Assembly: GCF_003991155.1 (NCBI RefSeq)
Contig: NZ_CP031293.1
Origin: Escherichia coli
Lineage (GTDB): Bacteria > Pseudomonadota > Gammaproteobacteria > Enterobacterales > Enterobacteriaceae
Length of the DNA: 64,000 nucleotides
Strand: one strand, 5' to 3'
Position 1 is the stretch's first letter. Each line of letters opens with the position of its first letter. Below, piece after piece: positions 5,831-63,728 of the stretch. The notes below the pieces were generated by a model. The model ran no database searches and had not been told where the DNA came from. It worked only from the letters and a program-made list of their open reading frames with translations. A program made the position numbers and the translations under genes.

Positions 5831-5838
5831 CCGTGTTT

Positions 5839-5866: not shown

Positions 5867-5879
5867 ATCAGAGTGAACT

Positions 5880-6083: not shown

Positions 6084-6093
6084 CGGAGAGAGC

Positions 6094-9023: not shown

Positions 9024-9067
9024 AGGGCGAAATCTGCCGCCTCTACCATTACAATACGGAGTTCATC

Positions 9068-45872: not shown

Positions 45873-46567
45873 CTATGCTTGAAGCCCCTTCCCCGCCGGA
45901 TAAATAATATCCTTACGGCAATTGGTAACCGTATAAAAGGCCTGATGTTTTGAACTGCCGTTGACGGAGATGAAGTAATCTGCTTTTTTGGCAGCATCCA
46001 ATAACGCATCAATGGCAACGCGATCATTGTTGAGCTCAATTCATAGCGCTGGATACAATTTCAATAAGGCGTCTTTACCACGTTGCGTGGCATTTTTGTA
46101 ATACTGTAAAACACCCGCTTTTTCCCGCGGAGATTCCGATACAACGGAGACGTTACGCTTGCTGGTATGGTTTCTGTCGGGAGGGTACTACCGATATCCT
46201 TACAAGCGTAGAGCTGTTCCATCATGCGTGCCAACAACAACATACGGATATCCAACCGTTCCCAGCGACGTAGGAACATCTCGCGAATGTTAATCCAGTA
46301 CTGTAGTCGGCGATCGCTATCACCAGATTCACAATCATAAAGAACCTCTGCAATATCAAGAGTATACTTGAGAATTTATGTCGATTCATTTTTCGTGCAC
46401 AACATTTCGATAGCTTCGAGGGCATCATGGTATTCTTTGTGACTGAAGGTCCATGAAAGTAACGTATCGAGAATAATCCCTGTAGTTGCCAAAATGAGTT
46501 GATCACTACACAATGATTTGTTTGTACAGAAGGAACGATTATTATATGTTCTTGTAGGGCAGAGCAC
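45873..46567 (-). pseudogene. Degraded gene remnant (internal stops and one frameshift), possibly yjhR-like
   Basis: Minus-strand translation runs ...SWTFSHKEYHDALEAIEMLCTKNEST-stop-ILKYTLDIAEVLYDCESGDSDRRLQYWINIREMFLRRWERLDIRMLLLARMMEQLYA... then shifts frame to ...YYKNATQRGKDALLKLYPAL-stop-IELNNDRVAIDALLDAAKKADYFISVNGSSKHQAFYTV...; four overlapping short ORFs in the track. Confidence 0.45.
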
Positions 46568-46684
46568 GTTGCTACCGTAACAGCGTTGAAGATAATTTGG
46601 CCGAGACTGTAGTGGCCCAGTTTAAAAGGTAGCAGAATTTTAAAAGTGTCAGGTGCATAGAATTAAAAAAATGGAACTATAAAA

Positions 46685-48418
46685 ATGGAAATCATATTAC
46701 CAAAAAACACCTTATATGACAGAGAGCAAAATGTCTTTTTTGAAAAGGTTACGGCCTTAATTGGCGAAAATGGTGCTGGTAAGTCCTCGATTTTACAATC
46801 CGTATTTATTAACTGTTTAACAAAAAAATATCTACCAGAAACAAAGGTTGTTTGTTTTTCTTCTGGACAAAATGAGAAATACTCAACGTACTTCTCTGAT
46901 TATCTTTCTCATGAAAGGCAAGCAAATAGAGGTCTTAACTTAGATTGTTGTTATTACGATAAATCATGGTCAAAGTTACTAATATTCATATCCACAATTT
47001 GTAAATCAAATGGTCTTGTTAGAAATTTTTTATGTGAGAAAGGCTATATTGATGTATCAGATGATAAAAATGATGATATATCAAGCAAGCTTACATTGAC
47101 GGTCCGAGTAAATTCGGCTTACGTTAATCGAGTAAAAATGGCATTAGCACAAGAAGAACAAGGTATTGAAAATACTTTAAGGTATTCAGCTTATCATAGG
47201 ACTTTAGAAAGTTTCATTAATAATATTGTTAATGCTGATTATGATTTCGAGTCTCCACTTGAAGCTCAAGAGATCTTGCTAACTCATTCAAATTTTTTCA
47301 ATCCATCATTTGAGGAAGCAGAAGATTCCTTTTTTGATCCTATCATAACATTTTTCACTCAAGCAGCAGATAATGATTACTTTATAATAAAACCATCATT
47401 ACAGCTAGAGTTTAAAAATAATATCGAACTGAATGATATTAGTGATGGGGAATATCAAGTACTCTTTTTATACTCTCTGCTTGATATTTTTGATAGTCCT
47501 AATACTTTATTCTTATTAGATGAGATAGATTCCCATTTACATTACAAGAATATTGAGCTCTTATGGCATCGACTACATAGTATTAATGGTTATGCGATAA
47601 CAACCACCCATCTATTAGACTCAATTACAGCTACTGATAATGATTTTAAAAACTTAAAGATTGTTGATAAAGGAAAAATAAAAGAAGATGATAAAATAAA
47701 AACTATAATAGAACGTTTATCTGTCTTGACAAGAATATCAGACGTACAGTTCGAAGTGTGTCGTAAACTAGAAAACATAGTATTGATGGATGATTATAAT
47801 GATTGGACTATTTTTTATGCCTTAGCAAAGAAAAAAGGACTTGATGTATCAAAGTTAGATGGCCTCCATGCAATAAAACAGTCCTCTGGTTACGATAATT
47901 TAAATCAAGAGTTCGCAAAACCAAAAATAGAGTGGATTAATTCGCTTTTAAATGTAAATACTGATAAAAAAGTCAAAAGAATATTCATGATCTGCGACAA
48001 AGATGAGGCTCCAATTACCTATCAGAAAGATGGAGTTCAAGTCAATGGAAGTGAATATTCAAAACATATAGCGAAGTTAGAAAATAAAAACAAAAATAAA
48101 ATATATCTCCTTGCATGGAAAAGAAGAGAAATAAAAAACTACTTACTATCTTATACGGCATTGTCCCATCATGGATTTATCGAGCAAATAAACAATGGAG
48201 ATCTGCCAGCTAACAGTTATTTAAAAGAAAACGATCCTGGAGATAATTCAGCAATTAGCCGGCTTAACGTAAAACATTGCATCACAAAAATAATTGATTC
48301 TGATGGTATAGGATTAGATATATCAAAACTTTACTCATATATAGAACTTATACCACCTGCTGAGATCAGTGAAGATATAGTGAACATGTACAATTTTTTG
48401 GTGGAGAAATTAAAATGA
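46685..48418 (+). CDS. OLD/PARIS-like ABC-type ATPase (AAA_15/21-like) with C-terminal Toprim-like (RloB/DUF4435-like) domain
   Basis: 577 aa; Walker A LIGENGAGKSSIL, Walker B/D-loop LFLLDEIDSHLH, C-terminal DxD-type motif IFMICDKDE; very AT-rich coding sequence; stop overlaps the next gene's start (ATGA). Confidence 0.6.
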   Translation: MEIILPKNTLYDREQNVFFEKVTALIGENGAGKSSILQSVFINCLTKKYLPETKVVCFSSGQNEKYSTYFSDYLSHERQANRGLNLDCCYYDKSWSKLLIFISTICKSNGLVRNFLCEKGYIDVSDDKNDDISSKLTLTVRVNSAYVNRVKMALAQEEQGIENTLRYSAYHRTLESFINNIVNADYDFESPLEAQEILLTHSNFFNPSFEEAEDSFFDPIITFFTQAADNDYFIIKPSLQLEFKNNIELNDISDGEYQVLFLYSLLDIFDSPNTLFLLDEIDSHLHYKNIELLWHRLHSINGYAITTTHLLDSITATDNDFKNLKIVDKGKIKEDDKIKTIIERLSVLTRISDVQFEVCRKLENIVLMDDYNDWTIFYALAKKKGLDVSKLDGLHAIKQSSGYDNLNQEFAKPKIEWINSLLNVNTDKKVKRIFMICDKDEAPITYQKDGVQVNGSEYSKHIAKLENKNKNKIYLLAWKRREIKNYLLSYTALSHHGFIEQINNGDLPANSYLKENDPGDNSAISRLNVKHCITKIIDSDGIGLDISKLYSYIELIPPAEISEDIVNMYNFLVEKLK

Positions 48419-50322
48419 ACACCTCTTTATTTGAAGATCTACTTACACTAATCAAGAAAAAGAGTTCGATAAGGAATACAGAACAAGCAGTAGAGTTAAT
48501 TTCATTATTTATTTTTTTACATTATATAAAATTATATCTTTATGAAAATGATAAAAGATTTTCAGATATAAAAAACATATCAAGCAACAACATTAATGAA
48601 ATTAAATATTATTATCAGCAACTATATGAAAGTTTTATTTTCTCGATAGATATAAAAAATATAAACCACGACATGCTTGAAAAGCTCAGGAGTAAGATAG
48701 GTTTTTTAATTAATAACATCAATGACCATGAAATAATTAAATATATAGATTATTCTATTTCGCAGATACATTCACTTACAGAATTCTATCAATATGCAAA
48801 TTCTTATCAATCTTTAATTCTTAGGATGGTTAATGAATCGGGTCGTTCAGGTGAATATGTTACTCCATCTGCTTTAGTTCAGCTCATGGTTGAAATGTTA
48901 TCACCTACAGATGGCACATCAATCTACGACCCCGCATGTGGAACTGGGGGTTTATTAATAGAGTCAGCACGATATATTAAAGGCAACAGTTTAAACAAAA
49001 ACTTAAATTTAAATTATTCCCTTATTGGTAATGACACATCATCATTTGCCTGTCTAATCTCAATTGTTAACCTTTTAATCAATAAAGAATTTAATTTTGA
49101 AATAATACTAAAAGATAGCTTAGATATAAATTATAAGAATACAAAATATGACTTTATTTTAACTAACCCACCATTTGGGAAAAAGAGCGGTTGGGATAAT
49201 ATTCATATTGACACACATTATAAAGGACCTAATCTAGACTATTACTTCCTGGAGCATGTTATTGACTCTCTCGCTGTTAATGGCAAAGCAGCCATAATAT
49301 TACCAGAGCGTTTTTTATATGATGTGAGTAAAGAGTGCATCACTCTTAAAGATAAGATCTTCCAAAATTATAATTTAGATTGTATTTTATCTATACCGTC
49401 AGGTGCATTGCTTCCTTACACTGCAGTAAAATTATGTATTCTTTTTATAAGTAATCCTGGCCCAACAGATAGAATATTTTTCTACAATTTAAATAATGGT
49501 GAAAAATACTCACGTACAAATATTATAAAATTCGATGATTTTATAGATTTTTTAGAGTCAGCAAAAAATAGAACAATAACTGAACACTCCTGGATTATCA
49601 ATATTAGTGATACACCTTCATCTTATAACTTACTCTTAAAAGATAAAGAGCGAAACTCATATGAGTTTCTTAGTGATTCTATAGTTAACATTGAACAGAC
49701 AATACGTAATAATGAATTATTACTAACAGAGTTGTCTTTATTAAGAGAAAAAATAGCAATCTTAGAGTCAACAATAAAAAATCATTCGCATGAATATGAA
49801 TTTGAGAGACTTAAAGTTGGAAATATTGCAATAGTAAAATCCGGAAATTTATTACAAAAAAACAGGCTGTTACCCACTGGACCAATTCCTGTATACGGTG
49901 GAAATGGAGTTATTGGATATAACAATGAGGCAATGGTAAATGGTGAAAATATTATTATTGGTAAGGTCGGAGCTCTTTGCGGAAACGTTCGGTATGTTCA
50001 AGGTGATATTTGGGTGACAAATAACTCATTAATTATTAAGAATTATTTACCAAATAAAGTTTTAACACCCTACCTTGCAAAGTTATTATCTACTTTAAAC
50101 TTAAGAAAGCTCGCCGTTGGTACCGCTCAACAATATTTAACCACAACACAAATAAAAAATGTAGAAATTAGCATTCCACCTTTAACGACCCAGCATAAAT
50201 TAAATATGTGGCTTGATGAGTTAGATAATACCCTTGAACAATATAATAAGCTCATTGAAAAAATAATGAATGATAAGCGAGAACTTAAAGAGAATTTGTA
50301 TAAAGGTCTTTTAATAGAATAG
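48415..50322 (+). CDS. HsdM-like N6-adenine DNA methyltransferase fused to one HsdS-type target-recognition domain (M-S fusion)
   Basis: 635 aa; motif X EYVTP, motif I DPACGTGG, motif IV TNPPFG; C-terminal ~180 aa resemble a single TRD plus HsdS conserved helix (KVGNIAIVKSGN ... VTNNSLIIKN ... TTQHKLNMWLDELD); AT-rich; translationally coupled to the upstream gene. Confidence 0.7.
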   Translation: MNTSLFEDLLTLIKKKSSIRNTEQAVELISLFIFLHYIKLYLYENDKRFSDIKNISSNNINEIKYYYQQLYESFIFSIDIKNINHDMLEKLRSKIGFLINNINDHEIIKYIDYSISQIHSLTEFYQYANSYQSLILRMVNESGRSGEYVTPSALVQLMVEMLSPTDGTSIYDPACGTGGLLIESARYIKGNSLNKNLNLNYSLIGNDTSSFACLISIVNLLINKEFNFEIILKDSLDINYKNTKYDFILTNPPFGKKSGWDNIHIDTHYKGPNLDYYFLEHVIDSLAVNGKAAIILPERFLYDVSKECITLKDKIFQNYNLDCILSIPSGALLPYTAVKLCILFISNPGPTDRIFFYNLNNGEKYSRTNIIKFDDFIDFLESAKNRTITEHSWIINISDTPSSYNLLLKDKERNSYEFLSDSIVNIEQTIRNNELLLTELSLLREKIAILESTIKNHSHEYEFERLKVGNIAIVKSGNLLQKNRLLPTGPIPVYGGNGVIGYNNEAMVNGENIIIGKVGALCGNVRYVQGDIWVTNNSLIIKNYLPNKVLTPYLAKLLSTLNLRKLAVGTAQQYLTTTQIKNVEISIPPLTTQHKLNMWLDELDNTLEQYNKLIEKIMNDKRELKENLYKGLLIE

Positions 50323-50330
50323 ATCACAAT

Positions 50331-50357
50331 AGCAGGGTGTCCATAAAACACCCTGCT
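50331..50357. terminator. Hairpin between the convergent M-S fusion gene and hsdR
   Basis: AGCAGGGTG-TCCATAAAA-CACCCTGCT stem-loop. Confidence 0.45.
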
Positions 50358-50402
50358 ACTGGTTGCAAGTAAGTTGCAATATCTGTACTGCTGAAGCTAC
50401 TA

Positions 50403-53400
50403 TTAATAATGCTCCTCAATATACCCATACGCCTTCTGGAACAACTCTTTATCTTTCCCTAGTCCAAACTGGGCCAAGGTCAGTAAAAGCGCCTTTTGGA
50501 TTTCGCGCGGGCCACTGTTGGAATTTTGCCAGCCATCAAAGCGGGTAGCTTTCACAATTTTATCAATTTGCTCTACAACATCACCGATTAACTTAGGGGT
50601 AGTTTCCGGACGTGTTTCGAGGAAAAGCTTAGTCAACGCCTGTTTATTATCAGCTTCAGTTACTGGGCGCTCGCCCGTTTCGCGCTCGGCTTGAACGGTA
50701 TCTTTCGCTGCATCCAACAGGCCTTTCAACCAGTCAATGGCCTTGATAACACCAGCTTCATAGTCCTGACGCAGTTTTTCAAGGCGCTCGCCCAATGCCA
50801 CAAATTTAGGATCATGACTGCCGCGCAAACGTCCCATAAGATCAATCTCCAGGCGTTTGGCACGTTGTTCCTGCTCTTTAGCGGTCAGGGTAAAAATAGC
50901 GTGCTCGTCCATAACCAACTCGTCAATATCATCGCGAATACGATTGATATCAGTATGCTCATGGATCATCTTGATTGTTTCGGGGCCAAGGGCAGCCCAA
51001 ACAAGCGCACCTGTCTGCCCTACCGGACGCACCGATTCATAAATTTGCGCCAGCCATTTATAGTCCTGACGATAAGAGGTCAAAAAAGGATCTGGGTTGA
51101 TAGCTGACCATAACTTGGATAACACACCAAAGCTGGCAGCGAATTCATCGCGTTTCTCGTTGGTCGGCAGGCATTCCTGCGCGGCCATAATACCTTCAAA
51201 ACCAGCTATGGACCGATCCACACCAGGGAAGAAGGACAAACATTTATTCAGTTGTAACGGCAATAGCTCTTTAAATGCCTCAATTCCCTCTACAACTCCT
51301 TCAATTTCTTCAGGGTTATAGGCCAGAGCGGTACGCAGATTTTCGAAAACGCCGAGGTAGTCGATAATTAATCCCATGTCCTTGCGTACAGTATCGGTTT
51401 CGTACAACCGGTTGGTTCGGCACATGGCCTGAAGAAGAGTATGATCGCGTAGAGGCTTATCGAGGTACATGCAGTAGCAAATCGGGGCATCAAAACCCGT
51501 AAGCAGCTTGGCGGTTACGATAATAAGCTGTAATGGATGTTCAGGATCTTTAAAGCATTCAATCAGATCCTTTTGCACCTGTTCTTCGGCATCAATGTGC
51601 TGCCAGCGTTCAAAATCGACTTGTTTGACTGGCAGCTCCAACTCATCATGCCATTTAAGCCAATCCTTGTTGAGCTTGTCTTTTTTGCCACCCTCTTCAA
51701 CTTTAACCGGAGCCTGGTCAACGTTCATAACCACTTCAACCGCATCAAAACCAAGCTTTTCACCGAGCAAATAATACATCTGCACACAGGCTTCGCGATC
51801 GTATACCACAACCATGCCTTTCATCTTTTTCGGCATAACATGGTTGGTAAAATGCTCAGCAATATCATTACTCACCGCAGCCATACGCCTAGGGGATTTC
51901 AGCATGATTGCCAGCTTGCCTGCACGCCTGGACAATGCTGCTTTTTCTTCTTCATCCAGGTTGTTTTCGGTAGCCAGTTGCTCGAACTCTTCATTGATGG
52001 CATCACGATCCACTCGGAGTTCAGCCAGCCGAGGTTCGAACTTCACCGGGTTAGTTGCGCCATCCCGGATCGACTGCTTATAGCTATAGCGGCTCATATA
52101 GCGACCTGGATCTTCTTCGGCACCGAACAATTTGAACGTATTACGATCAATGCCAGAAATCGGAGTACCAGTCAGGCCATAGAAGTGGGCATTGGGCAAC
52201 GCCCAGCGCATTTTCTCGCCTAATCCCCCTTCCTGTGTACGGTGAGCTTCGTCAACCAACACAATGATATTGTCCCGGTTGTTCAGGCCATTAGGGTTGC
52301 TATCGTCAATTTCGATATCTTTAAATTTAAAGATGGTGGTGATTAAAATGCCACGGCTGTCTTGTTCTATGTATTCACCCAACTTTTTGCAGCTTTGCAC
52401 TTTAATCAGATTCTTAACGTCGGCTCCGCCAAAGGTCTCGTTAATTTGGCTGTCCAGATCTCGCCGGTCCACAACGATAAGTACCGTCGGGTTTTTTAAC
52501 GCATTATCGGCACGTAGCATTTTGGCGGCGTAAAGCATCAACAAGGATTTACCCGATCCCTGGAAATGCCAAATAAGACCTTTTTTTGGATAGCCTCTGC
52601 GAACACGCTCAACAATTTGTTTTGCAGCTTCAAATTGCGGATAACGCGGCAGGATTTTAACGCGTTTAGGTGGAGTATTTTTGCCCGTTTTGACGGTTGA
52701 AAATAATGCAAAAGATTCAAGTAACTGCAATAAGGTTTGTGGATTTAACAAACTCTCACAGCTGTTGAGTACCGATGCTAATCCCGGCAGAATTTCATCA
52801 CGAAGCTCAGTATTATGCCAGGGCCCCCAGTCTTTAACTCTGGCATTAATGGCACCATAGGCAAAGGTTTTTCCTTCGCTGGCAAAGCACAGCAAGTTAG
52901 GTACAAAGAAAGATTCAACATTTTTCCAGTAGTACTTTTTGCCACCCATGAAATCGGCAGCACCGTCTTGCCAGGTCACGCTGGGGCGTGTTGCGGTTTT
53001 AACTTCGCCCACTACTAGCGGTATGCCGTTCACATAAAGAACAATATCAAAATAGACTTCAGTGGCCGCGATATAGCGAACCTGCTGCGCCACCACAAAG
53101 TGGTTGTTCTCTATATTGTCAAAATCAATCAGATTGATGGTGATATGGTCGCCATTCTTACCAAAAGGCAAGGTTTTGTCGGCCATCAACCATTCCTGGA
53201 AGTTTTCATTGGCCTTTACCAAGCCGGTATGGCGGGCTTCTAAAACCACTCCTCGCAGTTTGTAAATGACCTCATCGGCATAGTCAGGCTGTCTGCCGAT
53301 ATCAGGGTTTAACGAACAAAGCGCGTCTTTTAGCCACTCATCAACGAAGATATCCTGCGCTTGTTTAGGCAGGTTTTCACCGTGGCAGTAAGTCCACTTG

Positions 53401-53465
53401 ACTCCGCTTAAACCTTTTAAACGGTCGATAATTCCATTTTCTGTGACGGTTTGTTCGTTAAACAA
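50403..53465 (-). CDS. hsdR: Type I restriction enzyme R subunit
   Basis: 1020 aa; SF2 helicase motifs (GSGKSLLMLYAA Walker A, VLVDEAHRTQ DEAH box); last gene of a tightly packed four-gene operon. Confidence 0.9.
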   Translation of the reverse strand: MFNEQTVTENGIIDRLKGLSGVKWTYCHGENLPKQAQDIFVDEWLKDALCSLNPDIGRQPDYADEVIYKLRGVVLEARHTGLVKANENFQEWLMADKTLPFGKNGDHITINLIDFDNIENNHFVVAQQVRYIAATEVYFDIVLYVNGIPLVVGEVKTATRPSVTWQDGAADFMGGKKYYWKNVESFFVPNLLCFASEGKTFAYGAINARVKDWGPWHNTELRDEILPGLASVLNSCESLLNPQTLLQLLESFALFSTVKTGKNTPPKRVKILPRYPQFEAAKQIVERVRRGYPKKGLIWHFQGSGKSLLMLYAAKMLRADNALKNPTVLIVVDRRDLDSQINETFGGADVKNLIKVQSCKKLGEYIEQDSRGILITTIFKFKDIEIDDSNPNGLNNRDNIIVLVDEAHRTQEGGLGEKMRWALPNAHFYGLTGTPISGIDRNTFKLFGAEEDPGRYMSRYSYKQSIRDGATNPVKFEPRLAELRVDRDAINEEFEQLATENNLDEEEKAALSRRAGKLAIMLKSPRRMAAVSNDIAEHFTNHVMPKKMKGMVVVYDREACVQMYYLLGEKLGFDAVEVVMNVDQAPVKVEEGGKKDKLNKDWLKWHDELELPVKQVDFERWQHIDAEEQVQKDLIECFKDPEHPLQLIIVTAKLLTGFDAPICYCMYLDKPLRDHTLLQAMCRTNRLYETDTVRKDMGLIIDYLGVFENLRTALAYNPEEIEGVVEGIEAFKELLPLQLNKCLSFFPGVDRSIAGFEGIMAAQECLPTNEKRDEFAASFGVLSKLWSAINPDPFLTSYRQDYKWLAQIYESVRPVGQTGALVWAALGPETIKMIHEHTDINRIRDDIDELVMDEHAIFTLTAKEQEQRAKRLEIDLMGRLRGSHDPKFVALGERLEKLRQDYEAGVIKAIDWLKGLLDAAKDTVQAERETGERPVTEADNKQALTKLFLETRPETTPKLIGDVVEQIDKIVKATRFDGWQNSNSGPREIQKALLLTLAQFGLGKDKELFQKAYGYIEEHY

Positions 53466-53466
53466 T

Positions 53467-54633
53467 TTATTGTCCCCTCAGAAGAATATTCAAATAACTG
53501 GACTTGAGTTTACGAATTTTTTGAAGCCTTGATTTAGCTTCTCTATAACTGTTTTCGGCTAAATGTAATATATCCTTATATTTCCCAAGCTCTCTTGATG
53601 GTGGTATAACCATCTTCTGAGAATGTACATCGGCATCATTAACAGCCGGGAAACTTGTACCAACTGCCAAATTGGTTAATGAATAAGTGAATTGCTTCGA
53701 CAAAGTGAAATAATAAATAAAATCGGACAAATCATTTTTTGCCCTTAGAACAGTAAAACCTGTTGATGCTATTGAATCATTCAATATTTCAGACACATAA
53801 AACGTAGCTCTATGATTGGGTCTAACAGTGCTAACAACAATATCTTTTTCCTTAAGAATACGCCGAGCTCGGCTGGGGGCTTCAGCGAAATGGTATTCTT
53901 TAGGAGTATCGACAAAACCAGGAAAAGTCACTGAAGATATATCTATATACCTAATCAGCTTATTTTTATTGGCATCATTACTTAACAAGTCAAAATTAAT
54001 ATTTGATACATCCTTCAATCTAACTTTGTTATATCCAAATGGCAGTTTTTCTTTTCGATCAAATGTAGTCAACCGATCAATTAATCTTTGAAATAAATTT
54101 AATGCAGACCTTTCAGTCTCATTTGCACAATGTAATACTTGTTCGATTTTTTTTAAAGAATTTAAAAAATCAACTTGCAGATCCATTTCAGGAATAATAA
54201 ATTCCTGCTGACTTAAAACTTTCCATTTTATCGTTGGAGACAATGACCCCTCCGAAATTGCTACTGCACGATTCATGAAAGTATCAGACTGCATAATAAA
54301 GGGTAAAAACTCAGGTATTACAGTATTTGAATTTGCCTCCAGAACCATGGCATGAGCCGAACAGATACAATCCCAATCTGCTACCGCGACTTTACGTTGA
54401 TAAGCACGACGCTTACCAAAAATAATCTGGCCTTTTTTCACTAAAAGCTTCTGCCCTTCAACGTCACTGGGTGTACCATGACGTTTGATTTTCAGGCTGT
54501 CAGGGTCTAAATGCTCCAAACCGACATAAATTTCAAGGTCTGTCTCGCTCGGTTCCACTCGTTTAGAGATATGTTTAGCGATATCGCCAAACTTCACCAT
54601 TTGCCAGCCTTCAGGTAATTGCTGTTCTGTCAT
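53467..54633 (-). CDS. hsdS: Type I R-M specificity subunit (two TRDs)
   Basis: 388 aa with two TRD-like halves separated by a conserved central region; AT-rich; abuts hsdM2 and hsdR. Confidence 0.85.
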   Translation of the reverse strand: MTEQQLPEGWQMVKFGDIAKHISKRVEPSETDLEIYVGLEHLDPDSLKIKRHGTPSDVEGQKLLVKKGQIIFGKRRAYQRKVAVADWDCICSAHAMVLEANSNTVIPEFLPFIMQSDTFMNRAVAISEGSLSPTIKWKVLSQQEFIIPEMDLQVDFLNSLKKIEQVLHCANETERSALNLFQRLIDRLTTFDRKEKLPFGYNKVRLKDVSNINFDLLSNDANKNKLIRYIDISSVTFPGFVDTPKEYHFAEAPSRARRILKEKDIVVSTVRPNHRATFYVSEILNDSIASTGFTVLRAKNDLSDFIYYFTLSKQFTYSLTNLAVGTSFPAVNDADVHSQKMVIPPSRELGKYKDILHLAENSYREAKSRLQKIRKLKSSYLNILLRGQ

Positions 54634-56133
54634 TTACTGCTCCACCTTGCTTTCAACGTTATATCCAAGCTCTGCAAGGCTCTGGAATAATTTATTAGTT
54701 TGCTTTTTCAACTGAGTACGGCTTACTTTCCACGCTTCAATCGCATGTTCAATATTATGTACTTCAGCGTTGTTTTGTGCTTGCACATACAGTGGAATTG
54801 AAAGGTTATAAAGGTTTTCTTTAATAGCTTCAATATTCACTAAAGAGGTTATATCGTTTTTTTTCTCCGGATTAAAATAAGCCTCGCATAATACCTCCAA
54901 ATCCTCATCGGATAAGCGACTATGAGCGCGTTCACGGGTAACATGCTCAACCCCGTTGATAAATAACACTTTATTTTTGCGTTCGGCAGGTTTATTGCAA
55001 TTAAGCACCACCACACAAGATTCCATCGGCGAGTTATAAAACAGATTTGGTCCCAAACCAATCACCGCTTCAATAATGTCCGATTCAATCACCTGTTTAC
55101 GAATGGCCTGCTCAGAATCACGGAACAGCACACCGTGTGGCCAGAGCATAGCAGCACGACCGGTATCGGGTTTTAAACTTTTAATTATATGGGTATAAAA
55201 AGCATAATCAGCGCAGCCCTGCGGTGGGACACCATAAAGATTTCGACCATACGGATCAGCAGCAAACTTGTCACGATTCCATTTTTTAATGGAGTACGGT
55301 GGGTTGGCAAAAATCACATCAAACTGCTTGAGCCGATCGTTTTCAATAAACTTTGGCTCAGCCAAAGTATCACCACGCAGCACATCAAACTCTTCAATAT
55401 CGTGCAGGAACATATTCATACGGGCGATTGCGGATGTCAGCAGGTTCACTTCCTGACCATAAAGGTGCACAGAGCGCCACTCTTCCCCTCTAGCACGCAG
55501 ATCCATCACTGCATTTAGCAACATCCCACCTGTGCCACACGTTGGATCATAGGCGGTTTCACCCGGTTTTAAGCCCATAATGCGCGTCATTAAATGCACG
55601 ACTGTTCGGTTGGTGTAGAACTCTGCTGCCGTATGACCGGAATCATCAGCGAACTTTTTAATCAGGTATTCGTAGGCCTCACCAAGATCATCCTGAGCGA
55701 CAGATTTAATGCCTAGCGGAATTTGACTGAAATGTTCAATCAGATCAGCCAGCAGATGATCGGGCAGGCGCTCTTTATTGGTCCACTGCGCATCACCGAA
55801 GACGCCATGTAAACGCGGATTATTGGCTTCAATTAGTCGAAGCGCATTCTGGATCGCTTCACCAATGTTTTTACTGGTATTGCGTACCTTTTCCCAACTG
55901 GCTTCAGAGGGAATGTTGAAACGGTGAAACATCGGCATGGCGGCATATTCAGCATCACCTTCATGGAGTTCCAGCGCTTCGTTATATTCTTCCAGATAGA
56001 CATCTGACAGGCGTTTGTAAAACAGCAACGGGAAGATATACTGCTTGTAGTCTGATGCGTCAATTTGGCCACGAAGAAATTCGGCGGCTCCCCAGAGCAG
56101 CTCTTCCAGCTTTTTATTACTCATAGTACTCAT
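54634..56133 (-). CDS. hsdM: Type I R-M methyltransferase subunit, paralogue 2 (motif X variant FYTNR)
   Basis: 499 aa; HsdM_N (DASDYKQYIFPLLFYKRLSDVY), DPTCGTGG, ANPPYS; start overlaps the stop of the upstream hsdM paralogue (ATGA). Confidence 0.85.
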   Translation of the reverse strand: MSTMSNKKLEELLWGAAEFLRGQIDASDYKQYIFPLLFYKRLSDVYLEEYNEALELHEGDAEYAAMPMFHRFNIPSEASWEKVRNTSKNIGEAIQNALRLIEANNPRLHGVFGDAQWTNKERLPDHLLADLIEHFSQIPLGIKSVAQDDLGEAYEYLIKKFADDSGHTAAEFYTNRTVVHLMTRIMGLKPGETAYDPTCGTGGMLLNAVMDLRARGEEWRSVHLYGQEVNLLTSAIARMNMFLHDIEEFDVLRGDTLAEPKFIENDRLKQFDVIFANPPYSIKKWNRDKFAADPYGRNLYGVPPQGCADYAFYTHIIKSLKPDTGRAAMLWPHGVLFRDSEQAIRKQVIESDIIEAVIGLGPNLFYNSPMESCVVVLNCNKPAERKNKVLFINGVEHVTRERAHSRLSDEDLEVLCEAYFNPEKKNDITSLVNIEAIKENLYNLSIPLYVQAQNNAEVHNIEHAIEAWKVSRTQLKKQTNKLFQSLAELGYNVESKVEQ

Positions 56134-57629
56134 ACCTCGAAACCTTCTTTGATAAGCAGGGCCTCCAGCTCCTCTTCTGCTTTTTCCAGCTCAGCCAGCT
56201 TCCGTTGAAAATCTTTGAGCGCCTCTTCCACAGTGATGGTTTCTTCTTCGAGTGGCTTTTGCACATAACGAGCAATATTTAGATTGAAGTCATTTTCTTC
56301 AATCTCCTTCAGAGAAACCCAGCGTGCAACGCCTTCGATTTCTTTTGCATCTGGCCCTTGTTGCGCCTGGTCATGATAGATTTGGTATATTTCATCGGCC
56401 TGCTTGTTGGACAGCGTATTCTGCGCACGTCCCTTGGTATAGATTTCTTCAGCATTGATGATCAATACATGATCTTTATGCGCGGCCGGACGTGATTTAC
56501 GCAGCACCAAAATACACGCAGGAATCCCAGTCCCATAGAACAGGTTGGAAGCAACACCAATAATCGCCACAATGCGATTCTCTTGCAGTAATTTGGTTCG
56601 AATTGCCCCCTCTGCGCCGCCACGAAACAGCACACCATGAGGTAATACGACTGCCATACGTCCATTGTCGTTAAGTGAAGCAAACATATGCTGCACCCAG
56701 GCAAAATCACCATTTGTTTTAGGCGCCAGGCCATATTGCTTACGGCCATAGGGATCGTTCGACCACAGATCGTATCCCCATTCTTTTAAGCTAAATGGTG
56801 GGTTGGCAACAACGCAGTCAAAGGTTTCTAAACGATCGCTTTTTAAAAATTTAGGTTCGCGTAAAGTATCCCCTCGGACAATATCGAAATCTTCCTGTCC
56901 ATGCAGGAACAGATTCATACGCGCAATAGCTTCCGTCGTTAAGTTCTTTTCCTGACCCTTGATTTTTAGTAAACGCGGATCACCACCATTTTCTTTTACA
57001 TGGTGGATGGTCTCAAGCAGCATACCACCGGTACCACAGGCGGGATCGTAGACACTCTCACCGGCTTTTGGATCAAGAATGTTAACCATCAAACGAACGA
57101 TAGTTCGTGGGGTATAGAACTCACCGGCTTTCTTATTGGCTTTGTCTGCAAAGCGTTTGATCAGATACTCGTATGCGCGCCCCATATCATCGTCACGGAC
57201 ACTAGAAACGCCAAGGTTCACCTTATTGAAGTGATTGAGTAACGTAGCCAGTAACTCATCAGAAAGGCGTTCTTTATTGGTCCAGCTGGCATCGCCAAAA
57301 ATGCCATGCAGTTTAGGGTTTGCCAGTTCTATACCACGGAAGGACTCTTTTAAAGCCTGACCGATGTCCTTGGTCTCAGCGAAAACATCGCGCCAGTGGC
57401 AATTTTCAGGTATCTGAATACGGTGAAACATCTTGCCCTTGGCAAGCTCTGCATCCCCAATGCTCTCCATCGCATCGGCAAATTCTTCGTCATACACGTC
57501 ACAAATGCGCTTGAAGAACAGGATGGGGAAAATGTACGTTTTGTAATCTGACGCATCAATGGGCCCTGTAATAATATGGGCTGCATGCCATAGATGGGCC
57601 TCGAGATCTTTTAGGTTAATCAGTGTCAT
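56130..57629 (-). CDS. hsdM: Type I R-M methyltransferase subunit, paralogue 1
   Basis: 499 aa from ATG 57629 (MTLINLKDLEAHLW...); DASDYKTYIFPILFFKRICDVY, GEFYTPR, DPACGTGG, ANPPFS; ORF track extends to 57731. Confidence 0.85.
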   Translation of the reverse strand: MTLINLKDLEAHLWHAAHIITGPIDASDYKTYIFPILFFKRICDVYDEEFADAMESIGDAELAKGKMFHRIQIPENCHWRDVFAETKDIGQALKESFRGIELANPKLHGIFGDASWTNKERLSDELLATLLNHFNKVNLGVSSVRDDDMGRAYEYLIKRFADKANKKAGEFYTPRTIVRLMVNILDPKAGESVYDPACGTGGMLLETIHHVKENGGDPRLLKIKGQEKNLTTEAIARMNLFLHGQEDFDIVRGDTLREPKFLKSDRLETFDCVVANPPFSLKEWGYDLWSNDPYGRKQYGLAPKTNGDFAWVQHMFASLNDNGRMAVVLPHGVLFRGGAEGAIRTKLLQENRIVAIIGVASNLFYGTGIPACILVLRKSRPAAHKDHVLIINAEEIYTKGRAQNTLSNKQADEIYQIYHDQAQQGPDAKEIEGVARWVSLKEIEENDFNLNIARYVQKPLEEETITVEEALKDFQRKLAELEKAEEELEALLIKEGFEV

Positions 57630-57872
57630 TGTTGTCTCTTTTCGATCCTGCAGTGCTTGAACTCTCAGCAACTCATGGATTTCACAGTAAAAAAGCAAGT
57701 AAAGCGATTCCACAACCACCTGAGCGTTCAATATGTATGACGCCTTTACCCAAGTTGCTTAAATCAAGGAAATTGCCAGAGATAATACTCTGGCATCAGA
57801 ATGATACCAAGTTGAAGGGCTGATTTCCGCATCAATACCTTGTGGTAATAGGGGATTACTCTTTTACCCTTA

Positions 57873-58910
57873 TTGGCGCAAAATGGCGGCATTTCCTCAT
57901 TTCTCCATCGGAGCATCTTACGCGCTATAACCACTCTCGTTTTTTCCTATTCCCATGCAGATGAAGCACTACGCAATGAACTTGAGAAGCATCTCTCCCC
58001 GCTGAAGCGAACCGGGAAGATCACAACATGGCACGATCGCCGCATCGTTCCTGGTCAGGAGTTCGAACGTCAGATCGACCACTATTTTTCGCAAGCAGAT
58101 ATCATCCTGATCCTGATCAGCAGTGACTTTATTGCTTCTGATTACTGCTATCAGGTAGAGATGAAAAACGCACTGGAACGGCATAACCGGGGCGAGGCAG
58201 TGGTCATTCCGGTAATTTTAAGAGACTGTGCATGGCATCAGTTAGAATTCGGCAGCATTATGGCGGCGACTATCGACGGTAAACCCATCACTAAGTTTGC
58301 CACCCACGATGAAGGCTACGTTCAGGTCGTCGAGGCTGTCTCGCGTGCCATTGCCCGGATGGAAGCCAAAAAACCACAGCAAACCATACATATCCCTTCA
58401 CCGGCTCCGGCGAATCCGATCTTTCAGGGAGTAGATTCCGTTTTTACACCGCGTTCAAGCAACCTTACTCTACCCAAGAAATTTACCGATCTGGATAAAG
58501 ATCGTGCCAGACGTGAGGGCTTTGAATATGTTGCCCGCTATTTTGAAAATTCGTTAGATGAACTCAAAAAGCGCCACCCCGGATTAGATATCGATTTTAA
58601 TCGGCTTGATACAGATTCATTCACCTGTGCCGTGTATATCAATGGCAGTAAGGTCGGCCAATGTGGCATCTGGCGAGGCAATCAACATCATGGAATGGGA
58701 GATATCTGTTATAGCCAGGATAATGTTGTTCGAAACAGTATTAACGAAACTCTAAGCCTTGCTGATAACGGCCAGACTCTTGGTTTTCGTGCTCTGATGG
58801 GAGGCTTCAGTCGAGGAACTTCACGAGACGAACTATTGACCAATGAAGGTATGTCGGAACATCTCTGGGAAATGTTCTTCGGGCTAATCAAGCAAAGAAT
58901 GTCCCGATAA
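57873..58910 (+). CDS. TIR-domain protein with uncharacterised C-terminal domain
   Basis: 345 aa; N-terminal ~150 aa show bacterial TIR pattern (VFSYSHADEALRNELEKHL ... ADIILILISSDFIASDYCYQVEMKNALERH); remaining ~190 aa not recognised. Confidence 0.65.
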   Translation: MAQNGGISSFLHRSILRAITTLVFSYSHADEALRNELEKHLSPLKRTGKITTWHDRRIVPGQEFERQIDHYFSQADIILILISSDFIASDYCYQVEMKNALERHNRGEAVVIPVILRDCAWHQLEFGSIMAATIDGKPITKFATHDEGYVQVVEAVSRAIARMEAKKPQQTIHIPSPAPANPIFQGVDSVFTPRSSNLTLPKKFTDLDKDRARREGFEYVARYFENSLDELKKRHPGLDIDFNRLDTDSFTCAVYINGSKVGQCGIWRGNQHHGMGDICYSQDNVVRNSINETLSLADNGQTLGFRALMGGFSRGTSRDELLTNEGMSEHLWEMFFGLIKQRMSR

Positions 58911-59094: not shown

Positions 59095-60150
59095 TCATGC
59101 TGGCAAATACGTTTTCTTAAGCGGCACCAATAGCTTAGTCTCTATATCCACTTGCTCATAGTTTTCAACTAACGCGCGTACCAAATCATCCAGCGTCCAT
59201 AGCGTCAACGGGATTGTAGAACGATCGGCCTCATAACGCGCATCCTTGCTGAATCCGCCGGTACTGACATACAGCCCGCGATCGTCTTTATGGCGGCCAC
59301 CGATAAAGCTACGGATTTGCTGGCTGCTCATCTGTTCCCGCCGGTGCTTCACCTCAACAATAATGCGCGGATTTTCAAACCCAAATCCGTCAGGCGAAGC
59401 AATGATGTCTTTCCCACGGTCAGCACCCGCAGGCGATACCTGAGTTTTATATCCCATGCTGCGTAACACGCCAGCGACCAGATTCTGCATCTCATCCCAG
59501 TCGAGACGGTTGATACGATCCTTGATGCCTTCAAAAGCGATCATTTCCATGTCGCGCAGAGGATTAGAAACGACCTCATCCTCTTCACCTGAAACAGGTA
59601 CTTCCGGCACGATATCTGAGACAGGCTTATTGCCCTGCACTAATTCATTCACAGCAAAATCAGGCACCTGAAAAACTGTCAGCGTTGAACCAAGGGTGTT
59701 TCTAGTTGCATCACTCAGACTATCGCGCTTAATCTCTTCCGCATTCCACTTCACTTTACGGGCGATGCCCATGCCATCTTCAAGCCACTCGGCATGAAAC
59801 TCAAAATCTGACGCTATTTTCCCTATTAAATAGGTCCGATTAGAAGGTGAATAAGTGATAGCCCAGTCGCCTTTCTGCATTTCATTCACAAAGCGCCAGA
59901 CCTGAGAAGCTCCAGAACGAACTGTGCCTGGCTTAGTCTGTGGCTCAAGCTCCTGATACCGGGTAAACAACTGCTCTCTTGAGCATCCAGGTTTCACATA
60001 GGGAGCGAGCTGCGACCAACCAATTGCAACAACCTGTTTGTCTCTGAAGTCGTCGTACAATTTTCCGCCATCACCGCGGATCATCCACATCTTAGTCGCC
60101 ACAATAATTCCTTCTGAAAATACTTCATCGTTATACCGGGACGTGATCAT
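59095..60150 (-). CDS. Putative modification-dependent restriction endonuclease: PUA/EVE-like N-terminal domain fused to Mrr-type catalytic domain
   Basis: C-terminus has the Mrr core (GADRGKDIIAS ... IIVEVKHRRE ... YVSTGGFS); N-terminus has EVE-like pattern (VWRFVNEMQKGDWAITYS ... YLIGKIA); ATG 60150 has SD AAGGTGG (ORF track starts at 60183). Confidence 0.6.
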   Translation of the reverse strand: MITSRYNDEVFSEGIIVATKMWMIRGDGGKLYDDFRDKQVVAIGWSQLAPYVKPGCSREQLFTRYQELEPQTKPGTVRSGASQVWRFVNEMQKGDWAITYSPSNRTYLIGKIASDFEFHAEWLEDGMGIARKVKWNAEEIKRDSLSDATRNTLGSTLTVFQVPDFAVNELVQGNKPVSDIVPEVPVSGEEDEVVSNPLRDMEMIAFEGIKDRINRLDWDEMQNLVAGVLRSMGYKTQVSPAGADRGKDIIASPDGFGFENPRIIVEVKHRREQMSSQQIRSFIGGRHKDDRGLYVSTGGFSKDARYEADRSTIPLTLWTLDDLVRALVENYEQVDIETKLLVPLKKTYLPA

Positions 60151-60212
60151 TCCATTCAGCCACCTTATCCAGGGGAAAAACACCGATAAGATGGCTAATC
60201 AAAATGTCTGTT

Positions 60213-63200
60213 CTAAACCTGACGCCTATCAAGACTATTATAAATAGCCTCAATCTCACCTTTCAGGTTATCACCAGAGTAAACCATCGATGTATCGTAT
60301 CGTTCATATCGCGCTTCCCGTGTCGCACTAAACCAGTTGAACGATCCCACGCATAGCAAACCATCATCACCAATAACAATTTTGCTATGAACACGGTTTA
60401 CCAGCTTTGTAGCAATACCCAGCGCATTCAGTTTCTCCAGCGCCGCTTTAAGGTTCTGCTGCTTCTCTTTTCGCTTCTCAAAATCTTTATGTTCAGTGTT
60501 GTAGCTTCTGTCAGTGACTATCGTGACGTTAATACCACGTGAACACGCCGCAATCATGGAATCAAGAAAACCCGTTTGCTCCAGCTTTTGCCAGGTCAGC
60601 CATGGAGAAACTATCGTGATGTGTTTATCGGTATTTTCAAACGTCTGATTCAGGAAGTTATCATGCTGCTCCACACCATGAAGTGTGTAGATTTTGGTCT
60701 CGGAAGTTTTTAAATCCTTACGCTCTTTATAATCAAAAGAGAGCGCATTCTTCTCGAACTCAAAGAGATATTTTGCCAGCAATCCTCGCGGAGATGAGGG
60801 AGCCTGGATCTCAAACAGATCCATATCGCCGAAGACCAGGAAGCTATCCTTCGCACGGGAGACTGCAACATTCAGCATGCTGTTATCGCTATCAATAAAC
60901 CCGCCGTCTTCATGTTTTGAATAGACTGGCGAGAATATAACAATCGCTCTTTCCGCTCCCTGAAGAGAGTGCACGGTGCCCACTGTGAGCGACTTTTCAT
61001 TCGCGCCCGTACTGATACCTTGTTTACCCAGCGCCTGTTTTATAGTGGATACCTGCGCGCTAAAAGGCGTCACGATACCGACAACTTCATGAAGCGATTT
61101 GCCGTAATGCGCTTCAATATTTTGCTGGTTCTCTGCCAACCAGGCCGCTATCGTTTCAGCCTCAAGCAAATTATATCTACTTCCACTACTTGCCTGCTCT
61201 CCTTTACCATCAATATGGAGATAACCCATTGCGGGCATTAAATTGCTCTCTTCACGCCCTCTTTTAGGCAACAACTTACCGTGATAGCAGAGCGTATTAC
61301 AGTATCCAATAATATTATCGAAGCACCGGCGGTGTTCATATAGGTACATACCACGAGCCAGTTCGGGATCATATTGATAGCGCGAAGCAAACTGCGCTAT
61401 TTTCATAACGCTGCCAGATGCGGCACTTTTACCAAGGTCTGCGATTGCCGTATATTTCTCGGTAATCTCTTCTTGCGTACTGCCAGACAGAATTTTTTCC
61501 GCCAGCATGTTACCGACATCAATCGCGGGAGCAATACTCCATATTGGCGGGATCTGCTCCGTATCGCCAATCACTAATGCCTTCTTAGCTAATGCAAACG
61601 AGGCAGCAGCCACTTCAGGAAGCACCTGCCCGGCTTCATCGACAATGAGTAAATCGGCAAAATCATACAAATAACTTTTCTCGAATTTACGTTGTCCTTT
61701 GTGCTCACTTATCTGCATATTGCCGGGCAGCATATAGCATGTCATCACCACACATGGAGTGAGTTTCATTCGACGTTGCCAACGGGCGGTTACCCCTTTA
61801 GCGCCTTGTTTCTTCTTCTCTTCCTGCAGATCATCAATTCTGGCCATATCCATCAGCCAACGACCTTCCCAGTAGTGAGTCGTCAGTAAAAATGCAGGGA
61901 AGCGAATCTGCGTATCAGCCAGTTCATCGGCCTGTGAGAAGCTCAGTTCCTCGTCGCCCTCATACCCTAAATCAAATGCCAGCCTCTGCCACTCCTGAAC
62001 CGCCTGCTGTTCTTTAAGAACGATTTCATGGGCGGAGTCAATCTGCTGCCGGTATGTTGTTTGCTCGCGCTCAGCGGAATTGAGCAGCCCATCAATATTA
62101 CGTTCGATAGTTTCAGGATCAGACCACTGATTTCCTGCAATCAGCGCGCCTAATTTATCTTCGAGAAACAGCTGTATTTGGTACTGTCGCTTATTGCGAA
62201 CCGCCGGGAGCCAGGAAAATAATGAATAGATCAGTGATTCACCGGCGCGATATTTTTTCCATTCCGTTTTAGCACTCTTCAGTAGAGTGACTTTTTGTTC
62301 TTGTCCGGAAAGTAATTTATTTAAATTATCGAGATATTGCTCAATATCATTAGCAATAAGCTCACGCGCAGCCCGAATCTGGCTTAACATTTGCCATGTT
62401 GCGTTCAGTCTTATCAGTTGCTCGGATTTTGCTGCCAACTGACCATGCAGGAGTTCAATGATCTTTTCAGGGGATGAACACTCTTTTTCAGGAAAGGCTG
62501 CCTTAGCCTTCTCCAGATAAAACAGCAGTGCATCCTCTACATACTCTTTTGACTCAACCTGGGTGAAGAAATCTTCAGTTTGATATTTTTTGGCTGCCTC
62601 AGCTTTACGAGTGCTTGAGGGAAAATAAGCGCCGAAGCTTTTCAGCTCTGGCAACCATCGTCCGGCCATCGCACCTGAACCTTGCGAAAAGTCTTTCCCG
62701 AATGCCTCAATAATGTTCGTTACAGCCTGGTTATTCGTTGAAGTCGCGATAATAACCGGAGGCTCAGATTTTTCGAGAGCTGCTCTGGCCCACTGCGTGG
62801 CGATGATAGAAAGCACCAGCGTGGTTTTTCCGGTTCCCGGAGGTCCATTAACAGCAAGGATATCGCCATGTCTTGCATCCAGAAAATGGCTTAAGGCATC
62901 GCGCTGAGCCTTTGCCAGCGGAAACTTATCTCCGGAGTGTCCAAGCCTGTCGCTGAATTTTGCTCCTGGGGCCAGCAAAGACTCTGCAGCATGAACCTCT
63001 CGCGAGGCGAAGCGATTGAAGAGCGGCACATCCTTCTTGCAAACAAGCAGGTGATCATAAAGAGAAAGGATATGGAAACTGGCACCGCCAGATTGCGCCG
63101 TTTTAACAATATAACCGTGCTCAGCGAGTACATATTGCTCAGGATTTTTAATCCAGTCGCCGGCAACATTCTTCAGCAGCCTCTCTGAATCATCCAGATA

Positions 63201-63728
63201 TTGACGCCACTCCTGCTGCAAGGCTGCATATCGTGCTTCCCGTTCTTCATCCGTTTCGGCAGTCTTATCAATGCTGTCATCAAAGTTGATAGAGAACGAG
63301 GTATGGATTGTCTTGTATTTGTCATACTGCCCAATATCACCAATCGAAAATGCTCCTTTTGGCAAAGGTTCAAGCAGGTCTCTGGGAATGGAGGTCGCTG
63401 GCGTCGGATATAAAAAACCCTCACGGCTTAGCAAGGCTGGCGTCACTAGCGGGGTAACAATATCAGGTGCGCCTGCGGAACGGTCCTTACCATGCTGCAG
63501 TAACCGAAAATAAACTTTTGGGCGCAAGACGACATCGACCGTTTCGACATCGTCTTTTTCTCCCTCAAAAAATTTACTGACAATCGCTTCGTCAAGACGT
63601 CCCGCCGCTATCCCATGCCAGTGAGTGAAATTTTTGGCGTCTTTCCGTTCAAAACTGCCCTTTCCTGACTCAGCATCTGCAAGCGAGTTGCGCCAGTATG
63701 AGGCAAACCCTAAAGCATTTTCATCCAT
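60213..63728 (-). CDS. SF1 (Upf1/Dna2-like) helicase fused to C-terminal PLD-family nuclease; type II Mokosh-like
   Basis: 1171 aa; Walker [14 protein letters not shown], Walker [11 protein letters not shown], helicase C-terminal motifs ([17 protein letters not shown]), PLD HxK(x)4D motif [21 protein letters not shown]. Confidence 0.7.

Follow-up and report, generated by a model that had tools for sequence, protein, structure and literature searches.

Type I systems with two methyltransferase subunits

Restriction-modification systems of the canonical Type I, such as EcoR124I and EcoKI (M2S1, R2M2S1) contain two copies of one M subunit and place m6A on both strands. A subgroup in which two different methyltransferases deposit m4C and m6A was described by Morgan et al. 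(2016; PMC5100572), and more than 300 such systems had been catalogued in REBASE by 2016 (PMC5100572). In this family, M1 and M2 are 45-55% identical and are accompanied by one hsdS and one hsdR; the NPPF methylase is encoded upstream of the NPPY methylase, the latter adjoins S, and R lies downstream of S (PMC5100572). The M2 subunits are marked by AAEF (AGEF in M1), Phe180, NPPY, Phe373, an NSPME loop and Arg29 (PMC5100572; PMC9613975). The recognition site is bipartite, with m4C on one strand and m6A on the other, the methylated bases being separated by 7 bp (PMC5100572). Changing M1 to APPA abolished m6A and changing M2 to APPA abolished or greatly reduced m4C, the latter loss being seen with the NPPY-to-APPA mutants of PacII, BceNI and Mma5219I (PMC5100572).

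For PacII of Pseudomonas alcaligenes NEB 585, the heteromeric M1-M2-S core was demonstrated by experiment and by crystallography (PMC5100572; PMC9613975), and the structure of the M1M2S-DNA complex has been solved (Zhu et al., 2022; PMC9613975; PDB 7VRU/7VS4). Published work already covers the Type I architecture with two methylases, the underlying chemistry (M1 writes m6A, M2 writes m4C) and the atomic structure. The novelty implied by the original prediction for the locus studied here does not hold, as hundreds of such systems were on record by 2016.

Organization and integrity of the locus

The window, i.e., the whole stretch of 64,000 nucleotides of E. coli DNA that was analysed, carries a contiguous operon in the order M1 (NPPF)-M2 (NPPY)-S-R, and all four ORFs are intact (Table 1). 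The two full-length tandem hsdM genes and their ATGA overlap, as originally described, were confirmed, with the ATG of M2 overlapping the TGA of M1 in GGTATGAGT. RefSeq sets the M2 start at 56124, three codons later, which gives a 496-aa product and replaces the overlap with a 5-nt gap. It had also been proposed that hsdS and hsdR follow directly after M2, and this was indeed the arrangement observed: the M2 stop and the hsdS start abut (TAAATG), and the TTG start of hsdR is located one base past the hsdS stop. When both hsdM genes were checked for frameshift or truncation, neither a frameshift nor an internal stop was found. At least 20 E. coli genomes, each assembled independently, carry the 7.7-kb locus with 100% identity; an assembly artefact was therefore rejected.

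Table 1. Coordinates of the operon and its associated features in the window
Feature	Position	Strand	Description
hsdM1	57629-56130	minus	499 aa; adenine-N6 methyltransferase subunit (predicted), M1 type; AGEF-YTPR, DPACGTG, NPPF at 276-279
hsdM2	56133-54634	minus	499 aa; cytosine-N4 methyltransferase subunit (predicted), M2 type; AAEF-YTNR, DPTCGTG, NPPY 277-280, NSPME 367-371, Arg21
hsdS	54633-53467	minus	Specificity subunit, 388 aa; residues 1-193 match PacII S (7vru_C)
hsdS TRD1	54199..54633	minus	About aa 1-145; boundaries approximate, after the PacII definition; predicted reader of the CCC (m4C) half-site, facing M2
hsdS TRD2	53599..54054	minus	About aa 194-345; boundaries approximate; predicted reader of the adenine (m6A) half-site
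hsdR	53465-50403	minus	Restriction/translocase subunit, 1020 aa, TTG start
HTH gene remnant	57636..57716	minus	Small helix-turn-helix gene, of which other alleles have an intact copy immediately upstream of M1

The general features of a Type I system were all found, namely separate M, S (two TRDs with a coiled coil) and R (PD-(D/E)xK nuclease with SF2 motor) subunits. Each of M1 and M2 contains the Pfam domains HsdM_N and N6_Mtase, HsdS matches solved HsdS structures, and HsdR scored 477.9 bits against NCBIfam TIGR00348 (cut-off 284.55), with intact nuclease (D140...EVK) and motor motifs (Walker A GSGKS at 303, DEAH at 405). With the generic NCBIfam hsdM model the M proteins reached 229 and 228 bits, just below the curated cut-off of 242.75; these scores reflect the distance of the family from the generic model, not decay. 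The locus thus resembles EcoR124I and EcoKI in subunit architecture, HsdM_N + N6_Mtase fold, two-TRD bipartite site and HsdR motor-nuclease. It differs from them in having two paralogous M subunits, of different predicted base specificity, in place of two copies of one M.

Upstream region, distribution and selection

An intact HTH gene is annotated in alleles about 92% identical to that of the window; the window itself has only a 28-codon remnant upstream of M1. This remnant was recovered by tblastn with the HTH protein of allele L008 (L008 8984-9214), of which aa 46-73 matched with 54% identity (E = 6e-6). A promoter/terminator scan of the operon returned 18 matches against 13.9 +/- 3.8 in shuffled sequence, which is not above expectation; one weak promoter candidate on the minus strand (57810-57782) was noted and not relied on. 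With regard to genomic context, the locus sits in a defence island, which would belong to the variable region associated with leuX in the E. coli chromosome. A tRNA scan of the window found none, and leuX attachment is visible only in a related locus.

A screen of 5426 complete E. coli genomes detected the M1+M2 pair in 109 (about 2%), and both M genes were covered in every one of the 109. Carrier strains are, for example, 2016C-3878 (NZ_CP029747), AR Bank #0349 (NZ_CP041996) and FDAARGOS_1268 (NZ_CP069501). When compared with other E. coli alleles, dN/dS was 0.035-0.094 for M1, 0.03-0.06 for M2 and 0.03-0.05 for hsdR, and both M genes are under strong purifying selection. A pseudogene or inert paralogue was rejected on these low values in both M genes together with their intact catalytic residues. 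One E. coli genome has an IS3 element inserted within an M gene, and the system can therefore be lost.

The truncated HTH gene and the chance-level promoter matches would both be expected if the operon were present but silent in this lineage, loss of the upstream gene having removed its native control or promoter. We consider such silence unlikely, since the four intact ORFs are 100% identical in many genomes of unrelated sources, alleles L009 and L010 with the same upstream layout keep low dN/dS, and several characterised family members carry different accessory ORFs (PMC5100572).

The two hsdM genes are old paralogues of distinct families

The pairwise alignment of M1 and M2 spans 501 columns with 46% identity (E = 3e-162), and their synonymous sites were saturated. 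The earlier statement that the two copies align along their full length and do not derive from a recent duplication was borne out, and a recent duplication was rejected on both grounds. The peptides quoted for the two proteins, including FYTPR/FYTNR and NPPF/NPPY, were all located in M1 and M2 of the window.

The survey of genomes for M-M-S-R operons, which had been suggested along with a phylogeny of the two HsdM proteins, recovered the same gene order in three distant operons on plasmids of Exiguobacterium, Mycobacterium and Streptomyces. In a neighbour-joining tree of only 11 sequences, these three distant operons included, the M2 copies formed one clade; the upstream copies of the plasmid operons grouped with M1 of the window and the downstream NPPY copies with M2. 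The two proteins thus fall in separate families and do not sort by operon partner.

Fifteen columns were fixed differently between the M1 and M2 groups, among them P174/N175 (FYTPR/FYTNR) and F279/Y280. At nearly all of them M1 shares the residues of single-M relatives and M2 has the derived ones, and the asparagine of FYTNR is fixed in 4/4 M2-type proteins from three phyla. The motif reading of the original prediction therefore stands in part: FYTNR and NPPY are real, but it is NPPF, not NPPY, that is ancestral in the family, and NPPY and FYTNR are both derived marks of the second paralogue. Judged from these alignments, FYTNR is a conserved M2 signature and not a defect. The combination of FYTPR to FYTNR, NPPF to NPPY and GT(G/A)IP to NSPME provides a usable sequence marker for M2-type (cytosine) subunits.

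Such divergence bears on whether the operon could be a canonical m6A/m6A system with a redundant hsdM, in which either M alone could form M2S, leaving the other dispensable or in decay. The annotation of both genes just as 'subunit M' fits this picture, as does the partial m6A modification obtained in the family with M1+S alone (PMC5100572). We nevertheless regard it as highly improbable: beside the low identity and the saturated synonymous sites, dN/dS is 0.03-0.09 in both copies, like hsdR, the pair occurs in 109/109 E. coli matches and in three distant phyla with the same fixed differences, and M2+S gave no methylation in PacII and three other systems, M2 being needed for m4C (PMC5100572).

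The locus is closely related to PacII

M1 aligned gap-free over residues 1-499 with PacII M1 (PDB 7vru_A; 980 bits), and M2 aligned over its full length with PacII M2 (PDB 7vru_B; 1012 bits); identity to the counterparts was about 88-90%, as estimated by eye from the printed alignments. Each protein had its own counterpart as best PDB match, about 500 bits above the cross-matches. The PacII M1 residues E170, F171, N276, F279 and S280 are all retained in M1 of the window. Likewise, R29, F180, N285, P286, P287, Y288 and F373 of PacII M2 correspond to R21, F172, N277, P278, P279, Y280 and F365, and all are retained. Crystallised PacII M2 has 8 extra N-terminal residues, to which the M2 ORF of the window cannot extend.

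An M2 without catalytic activity, serving only in structure or regulation and bearing FYTNR as the mark of lost function, might be suggested by the departure of motif X from canonical FYTPR and by PacII M2 Arg29, which physically bars adenine from the M1 pocket and gives M2 a coordinating role as well (PMC9613975), yet this is very hard to sustain, because PacII M2, with the identical FYTNR, is active in m4C methylation and has a cytosine bound in its pocket (PMC9613975), the asparagine is fixed across the M2-type proteins, and the SAM-binding DPTCGTG, NPPY, F172 and F365 are intact. The suggestion that one paralogue serves merely in structure or regulation is accordingly unsupported, as both keep every catalytic residue and both are catalytic in the family (PMC5100572). 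Its companion proposal, a heteromeric M1-M2-S core arising from an old duplication, was right and had already been established for the near-identical PacII (PMC5100572; PMC9613975).

All published sequence hallmarks of the subgroup were found in the window, i.e., the 46% identical M pair with S and R, the gene order, the sorting of each M with its own family, the M2 signatures and a CCC-type TRD. The observations comprise the gene content and order, the intact state of the genes, proteins orthologous to the crystallised ones that keep the catalytic, DNA-contact and M2-signature residues, purifying selection on both M genes, and co-occurrence of the pair. We are highly confident that the locus encodes a complete Type I system, belongs to the m4C/m6A two-methyltransferase subgroup and is a close orthologue of PacII.

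The specificity subunit and the predicted recognition site

Residues 1-193 of HsdS matched PacII S (7vru_C) with 303 bits. TRD1 is near-identical to its PacII counterpart, which recognises CCC, and the six DNA contacts of the latter are all kept, namely R75, R76 and H94 to bases and Y78, Q79 and K81 to the backbone. The window thus has, as TRD1, one of the few and closely similar cytosine-type TRDs (those for CCC, GCC and TCY). Beyond residue 193, HsdS is without a PacII match and resembles a TRD of Thermoanaerobacter HsdS (3okg/5ybb, E = 7e-22). This similarity is moderate and insufficient to transfer a recognition sequence, and the assignment of TRD2 specificity from solved structures was rejected. 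The locus therefore shares with PacII the M1 (NPPF) and M2 (NPPY) subunits, TRD1 with the first connector helix, one S and one R; it differs in host, in the contiguity of its M1-M2-S-R genes and in TRD2, which bears no relation to PacII TRD2; RTTGY, the adenine half-site of PacII, will therefore not be the one read here.

Among the 109 E. coli genomes carrying M1+M2, just 41 have the TRD2 sequence of the window. Alleles L008 and L009 have the same TRD1 and unrelated TRD2s; in L010, TRD1 is replaced and the 3' end of M2 has diverged, and the C-terminal tail of M2 appears to move with hsdS as a single recombination module.

From homology to PacII, the recognition site is predicted to be C(m4C)C-N5/6 followed by an adenine half-site. 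Two members of the same subgroup share the CCC m4C half-site, Sen483I of Salmonella enterica SL483 (CCC-N5-RTAG), the characterised enterobacterial example, and Pme5I (CCC-N6-TGCG); their m6A half-sites differ, and the likeness to the window is drawn from their published motifs. We tentatively raise the possibility that an allele combining a PacII-like CCC TRD1 with a non-PacII TRD2 has an uncatalogued recognition sequence. A full-text literature search for methylome or restriction data on this allele, for any paper that names it, or for a CCC-N5/6 m4C Type I motif in E. coli, yielded none; the matches were two papers on the family, the announcement of a Salmonella Agona genome and items on other subjects.

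Proposed mode of action and significance

From the behaviour of PacII and nine other characterised systems, we infer that the locus has the m4C and m6A chemistry and a CCC half-site, that its subunits assemble as a heterotrimer and that it is active in restriction. One HsdS would bind a bipartite DNA site, at which TRD1 would present CCC to M2 (NPPY) for N4 methylation of the central cytosine, and TRD2 would present the other half-site to M1 (NPPF) for N6 methylation of an adenine in the other strand. M1, M2 and S would assemble in a 1:1:1 ratio, held by a four-helix bundle of the S coiled coil and both M C-terminal tails and by an M1-M2 interface; with two HsdR subunits the resulting R2M1M2S complex would translocate and cut unmodified DNA. 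The probable point of the duplication, which the original prediction had missed, is that M2 would act as a cytosine-N4 and M1 as an adenine-N6 methyltransferase, leaving different marks on the two strands.

The value of the finding lies in annotation. RefSeq labels both M genes generically as 'type I restriction-modification system subunit M', and such labels hide the m4C predicted at C(m4C)C bipartite sites in carriers. If the recognition sequence is indeed uncatalogued, some E. coli lineages would bear m4C at chromosomal sites numbering in the thousands, and epigenetic side effects would be possible. The m4C predicted in carriers bears on how methylomes are interpreted, on transformation barriers and on plasmid or phage host range in the carrier lineages.

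The tandem hsdM operon

Two full-length hsdM genes do lie in tandem, as the original prediction had claimed, and the peptides and motifs quoted there were all located in the two proteins. M1 and M2 are complete 499-aa reading frames on the minus strand, each with HsdM_N and N6_Mtase domains. The ATGA overlap was likewise recovered, the ATG of M2 sharing bases with the TGA of M1 (…GAGGTATGAGTACTATGAGT…); in RefSeq the start of M2 is the next ATG, 9 nt downstream, leaving a 5-nt gap to M1 in place of the overlap. The paralogues do align end to end and yet differ, with 46% identity and 66% similarity over their whole length in the pairwise alignment. hsdS abuts the M2 stop, and a single base separates the hsdS stop from the start of hsdR. 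HsdR exceeded the threshold of the NCBIfam hsdR model, and a nuclease motif (D140…EVK), a Walker A motif (GSGKS) and a DEAH motif were all present in it. The 7.7-kb locus, which is part of the E. coli chromosome, was detected in 111 of 5426 complete E. coli genomes; 20 or more independent ones carry it with 100% identity, indicating that the M1-M2 tandem is real and no assembly artefact. One genome, NZ_CP067241.1 (E. coli P19_598), carries an IS3-family element inside one hsdM in an otherwise identical locus, a natural knockout.

There is a small probability that the operon is silent in the window lineage: the helix-turn-helix (HTH) gene before M1 is cut down to a 28-codon remnant, joined in frame to a 5′ extension of the M1 reading frame, and no promoter stood out for the operon in a promoter scan. 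In ~92%-identical E. coli alleles the HTH gene is intact and overlaps the M1 start (8984-9214 in allele L008), and its product may formerly have acted on the operon as a controller-like regulator. The reading frames, intact in many lineages, argue against long-term silence.

Features of the operon and its neighbourhood
Feature	Coordinates	Strand	Remarks
M1 (hsdM)	57629..56130	minus	complete ORF, 499 aa
M2 (hsdM)	56133..54634	minus	complete ORF, 499 aa
hsdS	54633..53467	minus	388 aa; starts directly 3′ of M2 stop
hsdR	53465..50403	minus	1020 aa; TTG start
HTH-gene remnant	57636-57716	minus	28 codons; 54% identity to small helix-turn-helix gene
ABC/AAA_21-type ATPase	first gene of 46685-50322	plus	577 aa; weak AriA/AbiLi/mad3-like matches
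Methylase	second gene of 46685-50322	plus	635 aa; N6_Mtase fused to single Type I Methylase_S domain (one TRD)
ThsB-like TIR protein	57873-58910	plus	PADLOC ThsB1, E = 2e-153; divergent from M1
'Restriction endonuclease'	59095-60183	minus	362 aa; PADLOC candidate family PDC-S02, E = 1e-82
Mokosh type II MkoC	60213-63728	minus	1171 aa; 1684 bits

The surrounding defence island

The operon lies within a defence island beside nanCMS and fim, which in the related strain with allele L008 is attached at tRNA-Leu (leuX); leuX lies beyond the window, and no tRNA gene was found inside the 64 kb. The GC content is ~50% in the core genome with fim and nan, drops to 29-34% between 46 and 50 kb (~46000-50400) and is back at ~46% over the Type I operon and the TIR and Mokosh genes; the island resembles a mosaic built from two or more acquired blocks. 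The ATPase and methylase genes overlap, have ~29-30% GC against ~46% in the adjoining DNA, and adjoin hsdR convergently, as they also do in several E. coli alleles (L001, L009, L010); no nuclease domain was detected in the pair. The ThsB-like TIR gene is shortened in L010 and missing in L009, and no ThsA (SIR2/SLOG) partner was evident among the neighbouring genes. The PDC-S02-like gene and the adjoining MkoC make up a defence island with the Type I system.

Relationship to PacII

A full-text literature search on tandem or double hsdM genes retrieved two papers, one defining a Type I subgroup with two methyltransferase subunits (Morgan et al., 2016; PMC5100572), the other solving the structure of PacII M1M2S methyltransferase by crystallography (Zhu et al., 2022; PMC9613975). 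In this subgroup M1 (motif IV NPPF) makes m6A on one strand and M2 (motif IV NPPY) makes m4C on the other; more than 300 such systems, ~2.5% of Type I systems, were in REBASE by 2016. When the window proteins were queried against PDB sequences, M1 matched PacII M1 (7vru_A) with 980 bits, residues 1-499 aligning gap-free, and M2 matched PacII M2 (7vru_B) with 1012 bits, while the cross-pairs scored ~500 bits less.

The family is marked by the gene order NPPF-M, NPPY-M, S, R; by 45-55% identity between M1 and M2; by AGEF versus AAEF preceding the pocket phenylalanine; by an M2 arginine (PacII R29) stacking onto the target adenine; by an M2 aromatic cage (F180/P287/Y288/F373 in PacII); and by an M2 loop Asn-Ser-Pro-Met-Glu where M1 has Gly-Thr-Ala-Ile-Pro (PMC5100572, PMC9613975). 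All of these were found in the window operon: M2 keeps R21, AAEF with F172, N277-P278-P279-Y280, F365 and NSPME at 367-371, and M1 keeps E170, F171, N276, F279 and S280. Judged by sequence, the operon is a near-orthologue of PacII, the type example of the m4C/m6A two-methyltransferase Type I systems, with M1 and M2 orthologous over their full length and HsdS alike in residues 1-193 only. The class was described in 2016 (PMC5100572) and has had a structure since 2022 (PMC9613975), and the proposed heteromeric M1-M2-S core is what orthology to PacII would lead one to expect. The other suggestion, that one paralogue is a structural or regulatory subunit, is contradicted for M2, whose SAM-binding and catalytic motifs are intact and whose motif X is identical in the catalytically active PacII M2.

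Conservation of the two paralogues

Using M2 as tblastn query against 72,556 plasmids and considering matches above 50% identity, we obtained three, from Exiguobacterium, Mycobacterium and Streptomyces, each record with two places matching M2. All three loci are tightly packed M-M-S-R operons, the arrangement that a survey had been proposed to seek. The M copies of the window and of these operons were aligned, and a tree was built, together with three single-M systems. Upstream copies carry NPPF, AGE(F/Y)YTPR and DPACGTG, and downstream copies NPPY, A(A/Q)EFY(T/S)NR and DPTCGTG; window M2 and the plasmid downstream copies formed one clade. Fifteen columns were fixed differently between the two groups, and at nearly all of them the M1 residue is that of the single-M relatives and the M2 residue is derived. 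This split argues that FYTNR, originally taken as an oddity of paralogue 2, is by sequence a signature conserved in the cytosine-methylating paralogue; NPPY, described as kept there, is itself the derived state.

Selection was compared between the window and L008, L009 and L010, which are ~92-98% identical at nucleotide level over the M1-M2 segment. The dN/dS values were 0.035-0.094 for M1, 0.030-0.060 for M2 (L010 excepted) and 0.030-0.048 for hsdR, and both hsdM genes were covered in 109/109 E. coli genomes matching the M1-M2 segment. A reading of M1 and M2 as redundant duplicates conflicts with how old the duplication is, with the equal purifying selection on both and with the paralogue-specific residues fixed across three phyla.

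Proposed mechanism

Orthology, motifs, gene order, selection and co-occurrence are observed for the window operon itself; its methylation chemistry, CCC half-site and restriction activity we infer by orthology to PacII. M1, M2 and S would assemble 1:1:1 through a four-helix bundle of the S coiled coil and both M tails, with an M1-M2 interface induced by DNA. TRD1, the first target-recognition domain of HsdS, would present CCC to M2, which would flip the middle cytosine into its cage (NPPY/AAEF) and methylate N4; TRD2 would present the other half-site to M1 for N6 methylation of an adenine in the other strand. These two reactions would be asymmetric, the M2 arginine (R21) gating the M1 pocket, and the holoenzyme with two HsdR would restrict unmodified DNA.

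Specificity subunit and its exchange

Residues 1-193 of HsdS matched PacII S (7vru_C) with 303 bits, and the TRD1 residues that read CCC in PacII (R75, R76, H94) or hold the backbone (Y78, Q79, K81) are all retained. Since the alignment is gap-free through the first connector helix, an N5 spacer is mildly favoured over N6. The C-terminal half gave no match to PacII S in the PDB sequence search and only moderate likeness to a Thermoanaerobacter HsdS TRD; the TRD2 specificity of this allele may already be recorded in REBASE.

The window TRD2 occurred in only 41 of the 109 genomes matching M1-M2, and L008 and L009 share TRD1 with the window and have unrelated TRD2s. In L010 (E. coli DG341-1; 5548-7002 and 4397-5551) both TRDs differ and M2 (484 aa) is diverged in its 3′ part, with 80% amino-acid identity to window M2, and the megablast match stops short of the gene's 3′ ~500 nt. 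M1 and R are still >99% identical. From this it seems that the C-terminal tail of M2 is exchanged jointly with hsdS, as a single recombination unit. The overall picture, in which the enzyme subunits are conserved and the specificity domains are reshuffled between alleles, is the one usual for Type I systems.
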